A DNA stretch of 64,000 bases from Escherichia coli (GTDB taxonomy: Bacteria > Pseudomonadota > Gammaproteobacteria > Enterobacterales > Enterobacteriaceae): assembly GCF_044324785.1 (NCBI RefSeq), contig NZ_CP172127.1, one strand, 5' to 3'. The notes under the pieces were generated by a model. The model ran no database searches. It was given only the letters and a program-made list of their open reading frames with translations, and was not told the DNA's origin. The first letter of the stretch is position 1; each line of letters begins with the position of its first letter. Shown here in pieces: positions 26,905-33,636 of this stretch. The translations under genes and the position numbers were made by a program.

Positions 26905-26927
26905 GTGTCATCTACAGCAAATGAACA

Positions 26928-26961
26928 ATGCCGGATGCGGCGCGAGCGCCTTGTCCGGCCA
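26928..26961. repeat. REP palindromic unit
   Basis: gccggatgcggcgcgagcgccttgtccggcc between convergent yjfN and aidB. Confidence 0.6.
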
Positions 26962-27011: not shown

Positions 27012-28637
27012 TTACAAACACACTCCTCCCGTCGCCCGCAGCAATAAATCATTCTGGATCTGCTCTGACAACCGTACGCCGCCGCGCGTATCTAACATCA
27101 CCTGACACCACGCCTGCGCCATTGGCGGAGAGGCATATTTCAACATTTGCGCACCGCAGCCCAGCAGGAATAGCTGATGAGTAATCTCTCGCCCCAGTTC
27201 TTCAGCTGGCTTACGCAGCTGCTGCTGTAAACGACGAACCGCGCGATCAAAATAGCGCTCCTGCCCTTTCACTTCCACAAATGCTTCCGACAATAAGTCG
27301 TATACGCCCGCTTGCTTATTGAGAACGCGCAGCACATCCAGGCACATAATATTGCCGGAACCTTCCCAGATACTGTTTACCGGCATCTCCCGGTAAAGCC
27401 GCGGCAGCTCGCTCTCCTCGCAATAACCAATGCCGCCCAGCACCTCCATCGCTTCGGCCACAAACGGCATACCTCGTTTGCAGATCACAAATTTCGCCGC
27501 AGGCGTAAATAAACGCGCCCACAGGGCTTCTTTGGCATCGGCACGCCGGTCCCACGCTCGCGCAAGACGAAACAGCAACGCCGTTTGCCCTTCAAGCTGA
27601 AGTGCCATGCGACTTAAGACATGACGCATAAGGGGCTGTTGGATCAATGGATTACCAAAAACATGGCGTTGATGTGCATGATAAATCGCCAGCGAAAATG
27701 CACGGCGCATCATGGCATGGCTACCCAGGGCGCAATCAAAACGCGTCATCCCACCCATTTTCAGGATCAGACGAATTCCTTCCCCTTCCTGCCCCAACAA
27801 CCAGCCAATGGCATCCTGAAACTCCACTTCGCAGCTGGCGTTAGAGCGATTACCCAGCTTATCTTTCAGCCGCTCGAGGCGAATCGCGTTGCGTTGCCCG
27901 TCAGGCAAAAAGCGCGGCACAAAAAAGCAGGACAAACCGCCCGTAGTCTGCGCCAGCACCAGATGCGCATCGCTTTGCGGCACCGAGAAAAACCATTTAT
28001 GCCCCACCAGCCGATAAGAGCCATCTTCCAGGCGCTCTGCGCGGGTGGTGTTGCTCATGACATCGGAACCGCCCTGCTTTTCCGTCATTCCCATGCCAAT
28101 CAACAAACCGCGTTTTTGTCCACCTGGCAATAAGTGAGAATCGTAGCGATCGCTCAGCAGCGGGGTGGTCCAGTCCTGAAACAGCGCGGGTAACATCTGT
28201 AACAGCAATGGCGTGGCGGCAAAGGTCATGGTTATCGGACATAACGACCCTGCCTCAACCTGTGCGTGCAACATAAAACGCGCCGCGCGCGCCACAAATG
28301 CGCCAGAGCGAGCGTCTTCTTCCCAGGCCAGATTATGTACCCGATTGGTACATAGCGCCTGCATCAGCAGGTGCCAGGCGGGGTGAAAACGCACATCGTC
28401 CAGACGGCGTCCTTGCGCATCGTAGCGCAATAATTCAGGCGGATTCACATTCGCCAGACGCCCCAGTTCAAGGGATTCAGCCGTTCCTAACTGCTGACCA
28501 ATACTGGCTAGAAAATCGCTATCCCAGCCAGCACCTTCACGCGTTACCGCTTCGCAGAGCGCGCCATCAGACAGGTATAAGTTGCTGTTATTTAATGGTA
28601 TAGGTTGATTAAAAACGGTGTGAGTTTGCCAGTGCAC
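27012..28637 (-). CDS. aidB: Adaptive-response acyl-CoA dehydrogenase-like protein
   Basis: ORF 27012..28655(-); 541-aa product if initiated at the GTG giving (M)HWQTHTVFNQ... Confidence 0.9.
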   Translation of the reverse strand: MHWQTHTVFNQPIPLNNSNLYLSDGALCEAVTREGAGWDSDFLASIGQQLGTAESLELGRLANVNPPELLRYDAQGRRLDDVRFHPAWHLLMQALCTNRVHNLAWEEDARSGAFVARAARFMLHAQVEAGSLCPITMTFAATPLLLQMLPALFQDWTTPLLSDRYDSHLLPGGQKRGLLIGMGMTEKQGGSDVMSNTTRAERLEDGSYRLVGHKWFFSVPQSDAHLVLAQTTGGLSCFFVPRFLPDGQRNAIRLERLKDKLGNRSNASCEVEFQDAIGWLLGQEGEGIRLILKMGGMTRFDCALGSHAMMRRAFSLAIYHAHQRHVFGNPLIQQPLMRHVLSRMALQLEGQTALLFRLARAWDRRADAKEALWARLFTPAAKFVICKRGMPFVAEAMEVLGGIGYCEESELPRLYREMPVNSIWEGSGNIMCLDVLRVLNKQAGVYDLLSEAFVEVKGQERYFDRAVRRLQQQLRKPAEELGREITHQLFLLGCGAQMLKYASPPMAQAWCQVMLDTRGGVRLSEQIQNDLLLRATGGVCL

Positions 28638-28720
28638 TGTGTCTCCCTCCATCAATGGCAGTCACCCTTAGTATGGTCACTGCCATGGATTCATGACAGA
28701 AAGAGATTGCTAAAACATTC

Positions 28721-29884
28721 TTATCCAGCAATGTAATGCGGAACGAAACGTGAGGTGTCTTTGGTGATCAGCGTGTTATCTTCACGGATCCCCATTCCGC
28801 ACGCTTCATCATCGACAATCCAGCTACCGATGAGTGTGTAGCTATCGCCAAATCGCGGCAGAGGTTGAAACGCCTGGTAGATCATCGGTTCATCGGCGTA
28901 ATCACCATCAGCGTGGTCAACGACGTTATTCTGACCGTCGAAAATGGTGACGTTTCCGCCTTCGCGTGAGTAGATCGGTTTACGCACATAGCTTTCGCCA
29001 GCGGCAATCTGCGGTTTTTCGCCCTCAAACCAGGATGCAAGAAGGTTAGGATGACCAGGAAAGAAGCGCCAAAGCAGCGGCATTAACCCTTTGTTGCTCA
29101 AGATACTTTTCCATAACGGCTCCACCCATTGCTCGCGGCGCTTGCGCAGCAGCGGACCGTTATCGTCACGCATCATCCACTCCAGCGGATACAGCTTAAA
29201 TGCACGCTGGATGACATTATCATCAAGATCGGTCAGCACACCGCCGACGCCCAAACCGAGATCTTCAATGTAGATAAACCGCGACTCCTGCCCAGCCTGC
29301 TGGGCGCAGTCCTGCAAGTACAGCACGGTACTCCTGTCTTCATCGGTGTCCTGACAGCAGCAAAAATAAAACGGGTCCCGACTGTAAAGCTCACTAAAGC
29401 GCGAAATCAGGCGTTCCTGAATGGCATTGTACTGATCGGCATCACGCGGAATAATGCCGCTGCGCCGGGCATCTTCCAGCCACAGCCACTGGAAATAAGC
29501 CGATTCATACAACGAGGTTGGCGTATCGGCGTTGTACTCCAGCAGCTTCACCGGCGCATTGCCACACCAGGCAAAATCCATCCGGCCATACAGCGAAGGA
29601 TCGCGTGCGCGCCAGCTTTCGGCGATCACATCCCAGTACAACGGAGGGATCGCCAGTTGCGTCAGGATTTCTTCGTCTTTAACCACGCGATCCACCACCT
29701 CAAGGCACATCTGATGCAGTTCCGCAGTTGGTTTTTCGATCTGCTCTTCAATCTGGCGCAGGGTAAAGCGGTAAGCCCGACTCTCATCCCAATAGATTTC
29801 ATTGTCGATGATATGAAAGTCGAAACCGTTGTCAGCGGCGATCTGGTCCAGATCCCGCCGTACAGGAACGTTGTGTCTCAGCAT
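28721..29884 (-). CDS. yjfC: Glutathionylspermidine-synthase-like ATP-grasp protein
   Basis: 387-aa product from internal Met (MLRHNVPVRRDLD...); first residues overlap the yjfM stop. Confidence 0.88.
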   Translation of the reverse strand: MLRHNVPVRRDLDQIAADNGFDFHIIDNEIYWDESRAYRFTLRQIEEQIEKPTAELHQMCLEVVDRVVKDEEILTQLAIPPLYWDVIAESWRARDPSLYGRMDFAWCGNAPVKLLEYNADTPTSLYESAYFQWLWLEDARRSGIIPRDADQYNAIQERLISRFSELYSRDPFYFCCCQDTDEDRSTVLYLQDCAQQAGQESRFIYIEDLGLGVGGVLTDLDDNVIQRAFKLYPLEWMMRDDNGPLLRKRREQWVEPLWKSILSNKGLMPLLWRFFPGHPNLLASWFEGEKPQIAAGESYVRKPIYSREGGNVTIFDGQNNVVDHADGDYADEPMIYQAFQPLPRFGDSYTLIGSWIVDDEACGMGIREDNTLITKDTSRFVPHYIAG

Positions 29885-29886
29885 GA

Positions 29887-30525
29887 TTAGCCTCCCCAAT
29901 GCCCACGGGCGCTGGAAGAACGACCATAGCCGCCGCGAGAAACGGTTGACGCTTTTTTGGTGGTAAAGCCGCCCGAAGAATAAGACTCTTTTTTGCCAGA
30001 ACCGGAGCGCCAGGAGTAATCACCGGAAGTGTTGCGCCAGACGGGGCGCGAAGCAAAAGAGGAACCGCCGCTGTTATAAACAAACTGCTCATCGCGATCT
30101 TTACGAATAACCCGGCTTAACAAAAATCCAGAAACAACCGGGATCCAACTCTGTTCAACGTTGTCGTAGTAACAATTTTCATACTTAGACTGACAATTCT
30201 GCTGAGTCATATTCTTCGGAACATCGGCATAAAATGCCGCTTTGGCATTGTTCCAGCCACGCGCGCAAATGTCTGCATTATTACCGTCATCAATACAATC
30301 CTGCACTGTCGAGTAAAACGTTCCGTCGCCGTCGTTATCGACATCGCTACTTTCACTCCATCCTTTGACTATTAAAAAAGCAGCACCGCCCATTAGCGCC
30401 AACGTTAAGTATTTTTGTGCGTAGCGATTGCGGCGCGGCTCAAAAGGATTATGCGGTCTTCCAATGCGACTGATTGCCCCATGTCCGATATTTTTGTTAT
30501 TTCTGGATTTGCGTTTTCTGGCCAT
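29887..30525 (-). CDS. yjfM: DUF1190 protein with Gly/Ser-rich C-terminal tail
   Basis: 212-aa ORF; N-terminal hydrophobic segment, low-complexity C-terminus. Confidence 0.85.
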   Translation of the reverse strand: MARKRKSRNNKNIGHGAISRIGRPHNPFEPRRNRYAQKYLTLALMGGAAFLIVKGWSESSDVDNDGDGTFYSTVQDCIDDGNNADICARGWNNAKAAFYADVPKNMTQQNCQSKYENCYYDNVEQSWIPVVSGFLLSRVIRKDRDEQFVYNSGGSSFASRPVWRNTSGDYSWRSGSGKKESYSSGGFTTKKASTVSRGGYGRSSSARGHWGG

Positions 30526-30534
30526 GATCGTCCA

Positions 30535-30933
30535 TTACCATGTCATACAAGCTGCGTTAAAAATACCGCCAGCCAGCGCGGCGGTTCCCATAAACATTCC
30601 TGCTGCGGTATTGTGATTAATAATTTTTTCGCTTAATGAGGGCATATAAAGTCTGACACCAGCAAAAACGAGTAACTGAATCACCAGTGCAATCCCGCCC
30701 CAGGCGAAATAGTCTGGAATACTCACCGCATTGATTGCCGCACTGGATAACGGGATCACGTACCCCAACAATGTTCCGCTGAACGCCAGTGACGCCGCGG
30801 TATTATTGTTTTTGATTAACTGCCATTCGTTGTGCGGTGTAATTTTGGAGTAGATAAACAGAAAAATAATCACCATCGCCACGCCAATAAAAAAATAGGC
30901 GCTAAAGGCAAGAAGTGAATCCAGTATATGCAT
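30535..30933 (-). CDS. yjfL: DUF350 inner membrane protein
   Basis: 132-aa product from internal Met (MHILDSLLAFSAYFF...). Confidence 0.85.
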   Translation of the reverse strand: MHILDSLLAFSAYFFIGVAMVIIFLFIYSKITPHNEWQLIKNNNTAASLAFSGTLLGYVIPLSSAAINAVSIPDYFAWGGIALVIQLLVFAGVRLYMPSLSEKIINHNTAAGMFMGTAALAGGIFNAACMTW

Positions 30934-30950
30934 TGTAAACGTCCTTGTAA

Positions 30951-31610
30951 TTAACCAATAATATGAAGTGATGTCAGCGGGATATCGACACCCAGCGCGC
31001 GCGAAAATAACCACTCCGGCTCGCCGAGATCGTTAAAAGATTCCTCACCATTTAACAGCAAATATTCGTAAGTATCTCCGGTCACCTGCCGTTGGTAGCC
31101 CATGCTAAAATTATGGACCTCCCATTTGGCATGGTTTTGATTTTCTACTTTTTCCAGCATGTAGACAGGTTCGATATTTCCTGGTTCTTCGCTGTTAAAA
31201 AATCGCTGCCAGCGTTTTTCCTGCCAGTTTAAGGTCATTGCCCCCATCGCTTTGGCGTTGATCGCCTCGCGCCAGTGACTCTCTTTACTGATACCGTAGC
31301 TCTCTTCATAGACAAAGAGCTTGATATCATCAATGTCATCAATATCTTCGCCGCCGGTGGTATTGATTTGCAGAAATTCATCGCCCGAAGTGTAGTAGCG
31401 GAAAATCTGGCTACCGCCGCCCAGATCGATGCGGCTGACGGCGGCTACCGTAAATTCCTCACCCGGCAGCGCAATCAGCAATTCATCTTCCAGCAAACGA
31501 AACGCTAACGTGTCGAGCGTAAAGCCACTATTGAGATGCAGACCCAGCGGACCGCGAGCGATAGCAGGCTTATTATCCTTGCCAAACAGACGCTGGAAAA
31601 AACCAGACAT
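30951..31610 (-). CDS. yjfK: DUF2491 protein
   Basis: 219-aa ORF. Confidence 0.85.
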   Translation of the reverse strand: MSGFFQRLFGKDNKPAIARGPLGLHLNSGFTLDTLAFRLLEDELLIALPGEEFTVAAVSRIDLGGGSQIFRYYTSGDEFLQINTTGGEDIDDIDDIKLFVYEESYGISKESHWREAINAKAMGAMTLNWQEKRWQRFFNSEEPGNIEPVYMLEKVENQNHAKWEVHNFSMGYQRQVTGDTYEYLLLNGEESFNDLGEPEWLFSRALGVDIPLTSLHIIG

Positions 31611-31659
31611 ATTTTATCCTTAAAATAGTTGCCAGCCTTTTAGCGAGGCTGGCAAAAAA

Positions 31660-32358
31660 TTACTCGCCCTGTTGGCGTTGCAGTCTTGCTAATACATCCT
31701 GGGCGCTACTTTTATTGCTACCGCCAATTCCGGCTTCCGCCAGCTTTTCATCAAGATCGCGACCGTCTGCGACTTTTTCCAACTGTGCGGCAGCATCCAG
31801 GCGAGCCTGACGTTCGGCCTGACGCGTTTGCAGGCGTTTTAAGGATTCTGCCGCTGTCGAAACGCTGGAAGATGCGCCAACGGTAGAGGTCGTTACAGCC
31901 TGTTGTGCACGCTGCATGGCTTCAGTAGCTTTAACGACTTCCATTTGCTGCTCAAACTGAGCGATACGCTGCGCTGTCGCTGTAACTGCTTTTTCCACAC
32001 CATCACGAGAGACTTCCAGATTCGACAATACTTGCTCTTCAGCGGTAATGAGATTCTCAAGGCGCGCGATTTCTTCAGCAACTTCGTTAATCAACGACGG
32101 ATTAACGTTCTTGCTTAACGCTTCCAGCGCACGAGCTTCCAGACTGGCTTTGCGCTCACGTAAATCTTTCAGCTTATCGTGACTTAATTTCACCCGTGCC
32201 AGCAGATCAACGCGAGATTTTCCGGCTTTATCGAGTTCAGCTTTAGCGTCACGAATATGCTGTTCCAGCATGCGCACGCCCTGGGTTTCTTCAATGGATT
32301 CTTCCGCCTGAGAGATAAACGATTTCCCCAGCGTAAATAAACTTTTTAAAATTCCCAT
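31660..32358 (-). CDS. yjfJ: PspA/IM30-family coiled-coil protein
   Basis: 232-aa ORF, almost entirely predicted coiled coil (heptad-rich, E/K/R/L/A-rich). Confidence 0.88.
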   Translation of the reverse strand: MGILKSLFTLGKSFISQAEESIEETQGVRMLEQHIRDAKAELDKAGKSRVDLLARVKLSHDKLKDLRERKASLEARALEALSKNVNPSLINEVAEEIARLENLITAEEQVLSNLEVSRDGVEKAVTATAQRIAQFEQQMEVVKATEAMQRAQQAVTTSTVGASSSVSTAAESLKRLQTRQAERQARLDAAAQLEKVADGRDLDEKLAEAGIGGSNKSSAQDVLARLQRQQGE

Positions 32359-32376
32359 AAATACCCGTCCTTGTAA

Positions 32377-32778
32377 TTAGTGTGAATATTCTTCTGTAAT
32401 TTCAGCCAGATCCAATGCGTTATCTACCAGCGAGGTTATCTCAAGCAGGATATCTTCAAGAGAAGATTTAAGCGATAACGCACCGAAAACAATGTAATAC
32501 TCTTCATGTTGCACGCTGGAGATCCCTACCGATGACAACGGCATCATCTTCTGATTTCTTAATAAGAAGGTATTAAATTCATCTGGATTGCTGATACTAC
32601 TTACCGGACAAATAAAGGTTTCGATAATCATTTGGCGGGAAATAAATAGAATATTGATTTGCAAATCGCCATAATCATTCATTTTAATAATTAATGCGTT
32701 CTCGCCATTTGTTACATCAATATTTTGTTCAGGTACAGTTTGCAGCGCCGTCGCCAGCGCCAACGGATTCCATGTCAT
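32377..32778 (-). CDS. yjfI: DUF2170 protein
   Basis: 133-aa ORF, first gene of the yjfIJKLMC cluster. Confidence 0.85.
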   Translation of the reverse strand: MTWNPLALATALQTVPEQNIDVTNGENALIIKMNDYGDLQINILFISRQMIIETFICPVSSISNPDEFNTFLLRNQKMMPLSSVGISSVQHEEYYIVFGALSLKSSLEDILLEITSLVDNALDLAEITEEYSH

Positions 32779-32904
32779 ATATTATTCCATATAAATTAAG
32801 TTTAAATATTAATAAAATGAATATTTGCAGTACGTAATTATCTTACCAGCTATAGACAAAAAAAAACCATCCAAATCTGGATGGCTTTTCATAATTCCGA
32901 GGAA

Positions 32905-33636
32905 TTAGCTGCGCTGTCGCACCGCTTCAAATAAGCAAATCCCTGTCGCAACCGAAACGTTCAGGGAAGAAACGCTTCCTGCCATTGGGATGCTGATCAA
33001 CTCGTCGCAATGTTCACGAGTCAGGCGACGCATACCTTCACCTTCCGCGCCCATCACCAGTGCCAGGCGTCCGGTCATTTTGCTCTGATAAAGTGTATGA
33101 TCCGCCTCACCTGCCGTACCGACGATCCAGATATTCTCTTCCTGCAACATACGCATGGTGCGCGCAAGGTTAGTCACCCGAATCAGCGGAACGCTTTCTG
33201 CCGCGCCGCAGGCTACTTTTTTCGCCGTGGCGTTGAGCTGTGCGGAACGATCTTTCGGCACAATCACCGCATGAACACCTGCGGCGTCCGCGCTACGCAG
33301 GCACGCGCCGAGGTTATGCGGATCGGTTACACCGTCGAGGATCAGCAGGAACGGTTGATCGAGCGAAGCGATCAGATCCGGCAGATCGTTTTCCTGATAC
33401 TGCCGTCCTGGCTTCACACGGGCGATAATGCCCTGATGCACGGCACCGTCGCTTTTCTCGTCGAGATACTGACGGTTCGCCAACTGGATAACCACGCCCT
33501 GGGACTCAAGGGCGTGAATCAGCGGTAACAGACGTTTATCTTCACGGCCTTTTAAAATAAAGACTTCCTGAAAACGTTCAGGGGCGCGCTCCAGCAGGGC
33601 CTGCACTGCGTGGATGCCGTAAATCATTTCGCTCAT
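32905..33636 (-). CDS. rlmB: 23S rRNA (guanosine2251-2'-O)-methyltransferase
   Basis: 243-aa SpoU-family ORF. Confidence 0.92.

Follow-up and report, generated by a model that had tools for sequence, protein, structure and literature searches.

The six genes yjfIJKLMC lie tightly packed on the minus strand at positions 28721-32778 of a 64,000-nucleotide stretch of Escherichia coli DNA (contig NZ_CP172127.1, assembly GCF_044324785.1), which we call the window. The cluster is already known: it is named and nearly universal in E. coli. We find that its evolutionary core is the pair formed by a DUF1190 protein, YjfM, and an ATP-grasp ligase, YjfC, joined next by the DUF350 protein YjfL, and that the PspA module is an add-on. 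This description is more specific than the "conserved six-gene operon" of the first-pass annotation of this DNA. YjfM ends in an invariant motif, TVSRGGYGRSSSARGHWGG, which we propose to be the docking and acceptor element for YjfC. The full reading that we favour, with about even confidence, is that the cluster encodes a composite inner-membrane maintenance system of two modules, conserved vertically. The DUF1190-ligase core, the conservation of the Gly-Gly tail, the ordering of the tail motif by AlphaFold2 (AF2) and a lost K+ channel gene are new in this analysis.

RefSeq lists these six genes in the E. coli genomes that match, where rnr-rlmB flanks them upstream and aidB downstream. The open reading frames stand where the first-pass annotation had placed them:

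32377-32778, minus strand: yjfI, 133 aa, DUF2170, CesT/Tir-like chaperone family
31660-32358, minus strand: yjfJ, 232 aa, PspA/IM30 (bacterial ESCRT-III) family
30951-31610, minus strand: yjfK, 219 aa, DUF2491, cytoplasmic beta-rich domain, orphan fold
30535-30933, minus strand: yjfL, 132 aa, DUF350, polytopic inner-membrane protein
29887-30525, minus strand: yjfM, 212 aa, DUF1190
29890-29946, minus strand: codons for the invariant YjfM C-terminal motif TVSRGGYGRSSSARGHWGG-COOH, supported by motif conservation and AF2 confidence
28721-29884, minus strand: yjfC, 387 aa, GspS-family ATP-grasp acid-amine ligase without amidase domain

With these starts, the gaps of 18, 49, 17 and 9 nt given in that annotation are exact. 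The overlap that it described between yjfM and yjfC is not found. The TAA of yjfM (29887-29889) is followed by the letters TC and then by the ATG of yjfC at 29884, which has a GGAGG Shine-Dalgarno sequence upstream, leaving a gap of 2 nt. A 13-nt overlap arises only when yjfC is read from the TTG farther upstream, at 29899.

A 4.5-kb query (28500-33000) found the cluster, always at one chromosomal site, in 5425 of the 5426 complete E. coli genomes, which makes it part of the core genome. The best identity to any of these genomes over the same segment is only 98.6%, with most at about 97.8%, and the strain therefore lies somewhat off the sequenced mainstream. The window either comes from a lineage or carries an allele that few complete E. 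coli genomes represent.

A DUF1190-ligase core and a lost K+ channel gene

To place the cluster among its relatives, we used an alignment of YjfC as seed, took one genome per species and annotated the resulting 80 loci with hidden Markov models built from the yjf proteins. The loci fall into five forms:

Seven-gene form with K+ channel gene: 23 of 80 loci
Six-gene form as in the window: 11 of 80 loci
DUF350 - DUF1190 - ligase: 12 of 80 loci
DUF1190 - ligase only, the ygiBC type, including E. coli ygiBC (L077): 26 of 80 loci
Partial or rearranged: 8 of 80 loci

A DUF1190 gene stands directly upstream of the ligase gene in 70 of the 80 loci, with a median gap of 5 nt. The whole series I-J-(Kch)-K-L-M-C, where Kch is the channel gene, keeps one order and one strand in 34 loci drawn from several orders of Gammaproteobacteria and one Desulfobacterota metagenome-assembled genome. 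The gene order thus recurs across Gammaproteobacteria and beyond, which bears out the first-pass description of a conserved module in which PspA and a GspS-like ligase occur together.

One gene of the ancestral operon, encoding a K+ channel, has been lost from most E. coli. The order DUF2170 - PspA - K+ channel - DUF2491 - DUF350 - DUF1190 - ligase is seen in Hahella, in Methylotuvimicrobium and on one metagenomic contig. The channel gene is about 1.06 kb long, encodes Ion_trans_2 and TrkA_N domains and is annotated "potassium channel family protein". Its site is the yjfJ-yjfK junction (31612-31659 in the window), at which a related Escherichia (L004, 3072-4134) has 1063 nt in place of 46 nt. 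Only 19 of the 5426 complete E. coli genomes keep the gene, and it is absent from the window. A variant arrangement occurs on another metagenomic contig (L085, 2547-6614), which reads DUF1190 - ligase - small K+ channel - GapR - Band_7 and so has a flotillin-type protein instead of PspA.

The ligase YjfC

The PF03738 (GSP_synth) match of YjfC spans the whole protein (E 1.7e-149). It is the protein of PDB entries 7UK6 and 7UK7, and its paralogue YgiC is that of 7UK8 and 7UKA. The YjfC model has a TM-score of 0.98 to 7UK6 and of 0.75-0.77 to the GspSA structures 2IO8 and 2IO9, and it aligns with the synthetase half of GspSA only (residues ~253-613). YjfC fails the equivalog model for bifunctional GspSA, scoring 166.4 bits against a cut-off of 882, and has no CHAP amidase domain. 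Its resemblance to the ligase domain of GspSA, seen in the first pass, is therefore well founded.

Two studies of its activity are cited in recent articles (PMC11762307, PMC12506659, PMC12568646). As reported there, YgiC and YjfC are without glutathionylspermidine synthetase activity (Sui 2012) and have peptide-spermidine ligase activity in vitro (Pederick 2023). The first-pass annotation had held that the function of the module and the substrate of YjfC were not established, and had named published biochemical characterisation as what would overturn that view. Such work partly exists: YjfC structures have been published and, according to the citing articles, so has its ligase activity. Reviews of 2025-2026 still call the physiological substrate and role unknown, and to that extent the statement stands. 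The earlier reading was right in outline and out of date on YjfC.

YjfM carries a conserved Gly-Gly tail

YjfM matches PF06693 (DUF1190, E 8.1e-18). From N- to C-terminus it consists of a basic N-terminus, a hydrophobic anchor, an acidic domain with four cysteines, a short conserved hydrophobic segment and a basic Gly/Ser tail. Positions invariant in DUF1190 are C77, C87, C111, C118, P129, G133, R197, G199 and G201, and the hydrophobic segment has the form P-x3-G-F. Glycine and serine make up 40% of the last 73 residues, against 24% of the whole protein. The Gly/Ser-rich tail of the first-pass annotation is thus real, but it is not mere low complexity, since it ends in the invariant motif. Among YjfM orthologues the middle of the tail is variable, and the C-terminus is always ...TVSRGG[YF]GRSSSARG[SH]WGG.

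The Gly-Gly terminus extends well beyond YjfM. Among near-full-length representatives of the DUF1190 family, taken at 50% identity, 104 of 123 end in GG and 122 of 123 in G or S; at the 80 species-level loci, GG ends 75 of 78 DUF1190 products. Tails of the YgiB type close with SMGG, those of the YjfM type with WGG. The spacer from the RGGFG motif to the C-terminus is often only about 9-12 residues long.

Because GspS activates the C-terminal glycine of glutathione, and a peptide-acting ligase is here encoded after a protein that ends in Gly-Gly, the tail of YjfM suggests itself as the substrate of YjfC. We tentatively propose that YjfC and YgiC could be dedicated protein C-terminal polyamine ligases whose natural substrate would be the tail, SRGG[FY]G-(about 10-25 aa)-GG-COOH, of the DUF1190 product of the gene directly upstream, a possibility that may well prove wrong. 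On this hypothesis, the candidate acceptor tail peptide for YjfC would be ...SRGGYGRSSSARGHWGG. None of the open-access papers that we found proposes a DUF1190 tail as a substrate of YjfC or YgiC.

The nearest precedent for such a relation is RimK, an ATP-grasp ligase that modifies the C-terminal carboxylate of one dedicated protein, ribosomal protein S6. RimK differs from the proposed YjfC in adding glutamates rather than a polyamine, in belonging to another ATP-grasp subfamily and in having no membrane context.

A cytoplasmic ligase requires a cytoplasmic tail. Over the DUF1190 family, mean net charge is about -5.5 for the Cys-containing middle domain and +7.3 for the tail, which is nearly free of cysteine, and the conserved hydrophobic segment lies between the two. 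This asymmetry is the pattern expected for an outside/inside topology, so the YjfM-type tail would be cytoplasmic. The YjfM of the window has no lipobox cysteine. Residue 56 (30358-30360) is tryptophan, in the context ...VKGW56SES as opposed to the ...LKGC56GDS of most E. coli, with several further substitutions nearby. This protein therefore cannot be lipidated and would keep an uncleaved anchor.

We also modelled the pair in AF2 as a fusion of YjfC, a 30-residue linker and the last 30 residues of YjfM, using an alignment of 23 cognate pairs and reading the result through the predicted local distance difference test (pLDDT) and secondary structure. The linker has a pLDDT of 31-34. Residues 424-442, TKKASTVSRGGYGRSSSAR, which hold SRGGYG, reach 69-79 and include a beta-strand by DSSP. 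An ordered strand of this kind needs a pairing partner.

DUF1190-GSP_synth fusion proteins of 546-601 aa also appear in the database (P0116-P0120, P0163 and P0167). One of them, P0120, represents 130 sequences; there the YjfM tail is frameshifted and continues in the upstream TTG frame of yjfC. These fusions, in which the GG terminus would be destroyed, may be pseudogenes or assembly errors.

The PspA module and the remaining proteins

Each of the six products matches its Pfam family cleanly and over nearly its whole length. YjfI matches PF09938 (DUF2170, E 2.4e-43), and a search of PDB sequences links it to the crystal structure of Pseudomonas aeruginosa BacA (8Q8O, E 1.1e-16), whose fold its authors describe as that of a CesT/Tir-like chaperone (PMC10948618). 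A hydropathy scan of YjfI found no hydrophobic signal segment.

YjfJ belongs to the PspA/IM30 family, as first proposed: the PF04012 match (PspA_IM30, E 5.9e-58) covers residues 2-232 of 232. Residues 2-19 form an amphipathic helix with a hydrophobic moment of 1.42, compared with a mean of 0.65 for shuffled sequences, 1.15% of which reach the observed value. PspA and Vipp1 have an amphipathic N-terminus of the same kind. YjfJ has no match among PDB sequences at E<=0.01, and a review calls it the most distant member of the PspA family (PMC5333519).

YjfK matches PF10679 (DUF2491, E 3.5e-70); its AFDB50 neighbours are all DUF2491 proteins and its model is a high-confidence beta-rich domain. YjfL matches PF03994 (DUF350, E 5.2e-34) and contains two segments with a Kyte-Doolittle hydropathy over 19 residues of at least 1.95, together with two weaker repeat segments. 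The family match and these strongly hydrophobic segments support the earlier description of YjfL as a small polytopic membrane protein.

Transcription signals and published expression

Three features bear on how the cluster is transcribed:

32861-32890, minus strand: intrinsic terminator of rlmB, 13-bp stem, -18.1 kcal/mol, z -4.7, with 0 of 200 shuffles folding as well
32779-32857, minus strand: rlmB-yjfI spacer, presumed yjfI promoter region, AT-rich, GC ~0.38
31629-31655, minus strand: stable hairpin in the 49-nt yjfJ-yjfK spacer, -17.1 kcal/mol, z -3.9, weak U tail

The rlmB terminator hairpin is followed by a run of nine T (32858-32866) and separates rnr-rlmB from yjfI. Because the terminator is strong, yjfI should have its own start region in the AT-rich segment 32779-32857. 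Simple scans found no sigma-70 consensus in the rlmB-yjfI spacer and no sigma-54 -24/-12 consensus in 32779-32900. GC content is ~38% in yjfI and the upstream spacer (32250-33000) and ~54% in the flanking genes.

Near-silent expression is reported across PRECISE-1K (PMC12492005); combined with the low GC of the yjfI region, it would be compatible with a nucleoid protein acting as silencer. The genes yjfIJKL are strongly up-regulated in heat-evolved E. coli and form an iModulon that excludes yjfMC (Rychel et al. 2025, PMC12492005). Those authors attribute the change to a 1-nt deletion 80 bp upstream of yjfI (PMC12492005). In the window, this activating deletion, which arose in heat-evolved mutL strains, would map to 32858, where the T9 run of the rlmB terminator ends. 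Judged from the coordinates, it may be a homopolymer slip that affects termination or read-through, not a classical promoter mutation.

Within the cluster, the yjfJ-yjfK hairpin occupies the very site of the K+ channel gene of other genomes. It is plausibly a partial terminator or stabiliser, which would tilt expression towards YjfI and YjfJ and away from the distal genes. A second terminator-like hairpin, at the 3' end of yjfL (30565-30585), was considered as the iModulon boundary and rejected, its folding energy being equal to that of shuffled sequences (z 0.02). The spacing of the genes makes co-transcription of all six in E. coli plausible.

A proposed mechanism

In the reading that we favour, the first module is YjfI-YjfJ. 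YjfI would act in the cytoplasm as a CesT-like chaperone or regulator and, by analogy with P. aeruginosa BacA, would keep the system down, while YjfJ would attach to the inner membrane from the cytoplasmic side by way of its N-terminal amphipathic helix. The second module, and the evolutionary core, would be YjfL-YjfM-YjfC, comprising the DUF350 membrane protein, the membrane-anchored DUF1190 protein and the ligase. The tail of YjfM would lie in the cytoplasm and dock on YjfC via the SRGG[FY]G motif. Its terminal glycine carboxylate would then be activated and amidated with spermidine, as the glycine of glutathione is in GspS. The product would be a polycation tethered to the membrane, working jointly with YjfJ, and in the ancestral operon with the K+ channel, on membrane and ion homeostasis under stresses such as heat. 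YjfK would be a cytoplasmic accessory protein.

If this is correct, C-terminal spermidinylation would be a post-translational modification not described before, with a polycation tethered to the membrane as its product. Repeated linkage with K+ channel genes, in phages as well as in the ancestral operon, suggests that a channel could be gated or blocked by the tethered polyamine, or membrane charge tuned by it, alongside the PspA-like YjfJ. The cluster connects ESCRT-III/PspA membrane repair, polyamine chemistry and, ancestrally, K+ channels, which are usually studied apart. Should the DUF1190 tail be the real substrate, the long-open question of YgiC and YjfC becomes tractable; if it is not, the cluster stays among the well-catalogued "known unknowns". 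In both cases the cis mutation already published, which turns yjfIJKL on, is a ready tool.

Several observations weigh against this reading. A lipoprotein signal or lipobox is present in 102 of 126 DUF1190 representatives, and the internal hydrophobic segment of the family is short and weak, with a mean Kyte-Doolittle value of ~1.2 over 15 residues and ~0.8 over 19, so that it cannot confidently be named a transmembrane helix. Given these two features, the tail may be periplasmic and beyond the reach of a cytoplasmic ligase. In the AF2 fusion, the last five residues, GHWGG, have a pLDDT below 50. A review states that YjfJ has been reported not to form PspA-like rings (PMC5333519). The ligase occurs in M-C or L-M-C arrangements alone in 38 of the 80 surveyed loci. 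The iModulon holds yjfIJKL without yjfMC (PMC12492005) and a stable hairpin follows yjfJ, so the two modules may be expressed separately. Finally, 40 of 77 viral ligase loci, described below, have no detectable DUF1190 gene, and DUF1190 cannot therefore be the only substrate of the ligase family.

Alternative explanations

The strongest competitor, a minority view that we nevertheless take seriously, is that the cluster consists of two independent units that happen to be neighbours: a Psp-like yjfIJ, with or without yjfKL, and a polyamine-conjugation unit yjfMC, with or without yjfL and with ygiBC as its paralogue. The two would be regulated separately and have unrelated functions. Such independence would account for the loci with M-C alone (26 of 80) or L-M-C alone (12 of 80) and for the stand-alone ygiBC pair in E. 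coli itself. It also agrees with the membership of the iModulon, which holds only yjfIJKL (PMC12492005), with the hairpin after yjfJ and with the term "yjfIJ operon" used for E. coli in the BacA paper (PMC10948618). However, I-J-(Kch)-K-L-M-C stays on one strand in 34 of 80 loci, and no terminator or promoter would fit into the gaps of 9 and 2 nt on either side of yjfM. In P. aeruginosa, moreover, the six genes are co-transcribed, as determined by reverse transcription PCR, and the five downstream products rise together in a bacA mutant (PMC10948618).

A second and slightly less probable alternative concerns the substrate. YjfC might act on a small soluble peptide or metabolite to give a glutathionylspermidine-like thiol or polyamine conjugate, and YjfM would then be just a membrane adaptor or regulator that recruits the ligase, rather than its substrate. 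The in-vitro activity reported in the citing articles was on free peptides, and among the family members are GspS and trypanothione synthetase, whose substrates are small molecules. AF2, too, orders the internal motif of the tail and not the terminal GG. Against these points, an adaptor role alone does not explain why so many DUF1190 genes, 75 of 78 next to the ligase and 104 of 123 in the family set, have their stop codon directly behind GG. The distance from RGGFG to the C-terminus is often only about 9-12 residues. Glutathione itself is described as a non-substrate in the same articles.

Viral relatives of YjfC bear on this question. Seventy-seven IMG/VR viral contigs (L088-L164), many of them 100-530 kb long, encode ligases 33-52% identical to YjfC, although some of these contigs may be host or prophage DNA. 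At about 35 of the 77 loci, a DUF1190 gene adjoins the ligase gene, and its product carries RGGFG, then 9-12 residues, then small C-terminal residues. At 19 loci, a K+ channel gene is adjacent to or overlaps the ligase gene without DUF1190, and at 21 the ligase stands alone. The frequent lack of a DUF1190 neighbour is in keeping with a small-molecule substrate. An RGGFG...GG tail was looked for in the phage K+ channel proteins encoded beside the ligase and was not found.

A published structural reading assigns the proteins to other compartments, with YjfK as a primitive outer-membrane porin, YjfI as a periplasmic lipoprotein-like sheet former and YjfL as a channel, so that pore-like proteins would crowd the envelope (PMC12492005). 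The beta-rich YjfK model and the up-regulation of yjfIJKL in heat-adapted strains (PMC12492005) fit this view, which we consider very improbable. An anti-phage defence or other mobile accessory system is the least credible explanation of all: YjfC-like ligases are common on IMG/VR viral contigs and yjfI with its upstream region is AT-rich, but PADLOC gave no match beyond weak coiled-coil hits of YjfJ to JetC and LmuB, and the cluster occupies a single chromosomal position in 5425 of the 5426 E. coli genomes and shows vertical conservation among related genera.

Relation to known systems

Among the closest known systems is the "biofilm-associated cluster" bacABCDEF of P. aeruginosa (PA3732-PA3729 and two further genes), which is co-transcribed (PMC10948618). 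Like yjfIJKLMC, it encodes a DUF2170 protein (BacA, 8Q8O), a PspA protein (BacB), DUF2491, DUF1190 and DUF350 proteins and a GSP_synth ligase. All downstream bac products increase 6- to 13-fold in a bacA mutant, and bac mutants are defective in biofilm formation and virulence traits (PMC10948618). The two clusters are not identical. The Pseudomonas locus in our survey (L083) has the order I-J-K-M-L-C, with DUF350 and DUF1190 swapped relative to yjf, and YjfI scores 93.7 bits against a cut-off of 300 for the BacA equivalog. A sigma-54 promoter has been proposed for bac, whereas we found no sigma-54 site upstream of yjfI, and the biofilm, rhamnolipid and virulence phenotypes are known only for the Pseudomonas cluster.

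Ravi et al. (2024, PMC11237479) described a class of operons that combine a CesT/Tir-PspA dyad, a GspS-like ATP-grasp ligase, DUF350, DUF1190, DUF2491 and a K+ channel, and proposed that they couple PspA-based membrane dynamics to polyamine levels or modifications. The yjf cluster of the window is a member of their "third group" of CesT/Tir-PspA ATP-grasp operons, with all genes on one strand. Their archetype includes a K+ channel gene with an intracellular ligand-sensing domain, which the window cluster lacks.

Within E. coli, the tolC-ygiBC locus holds a paralogous DUF1190-ligase pair, 5 nt apart. YgiC is ~51% identical to YjfC and, in the articles that cite the biochemical work, is credited with the same in-vitro activity. 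Unlike yjf, ygiBC has no PspA, DUF2170, DUF2491 or DUF350 partner, and the YgiB tail ends in MGG after a longer spacer, compared with WGG in YjfM. E. coli GspSA shares the ATP-grasp synthetase fold and the chemistry of YjfC, in which a carboxylate is activated and joined to spermidine. It differs in having an N-terminal CHAP amidase domain and in its product, since YjfC is reported, in the citing articles, not to make glutathionylspermidine.

The pspABCDE/PspF system of E. coli and LiaIH of Bacillus subtilis resemble yjf in placing a PspA-family effector beside small membrane proteins and a negative regulator or partner, and inner-membrane stabilisation is proposed for both kinds of system. 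The yjf cluster, by contrast, has no PspB, PspC, PspF, sigma-54 site or two-component system.

Downstream of the cluster

A hairpin and terminator scan found no terminator between yjfC and aidB. The 83-nt spacer between these genes contains a 12-bp inverted repeat with one mismatch, ATGGCAGTGACC ... GGTGACTGCCAT (28655-28686), which lacks a T tract and probably serves the regulation of aidB. Farther downstream, between yjfN and aidB, positions 26923-26960 give a sub-threshold Rfam match to naRNA4, an RNA derived from repetitive extragenic palindromic (REP) sequences (29.6 bits against a gathering score of 59.5); this is probably a REP element.

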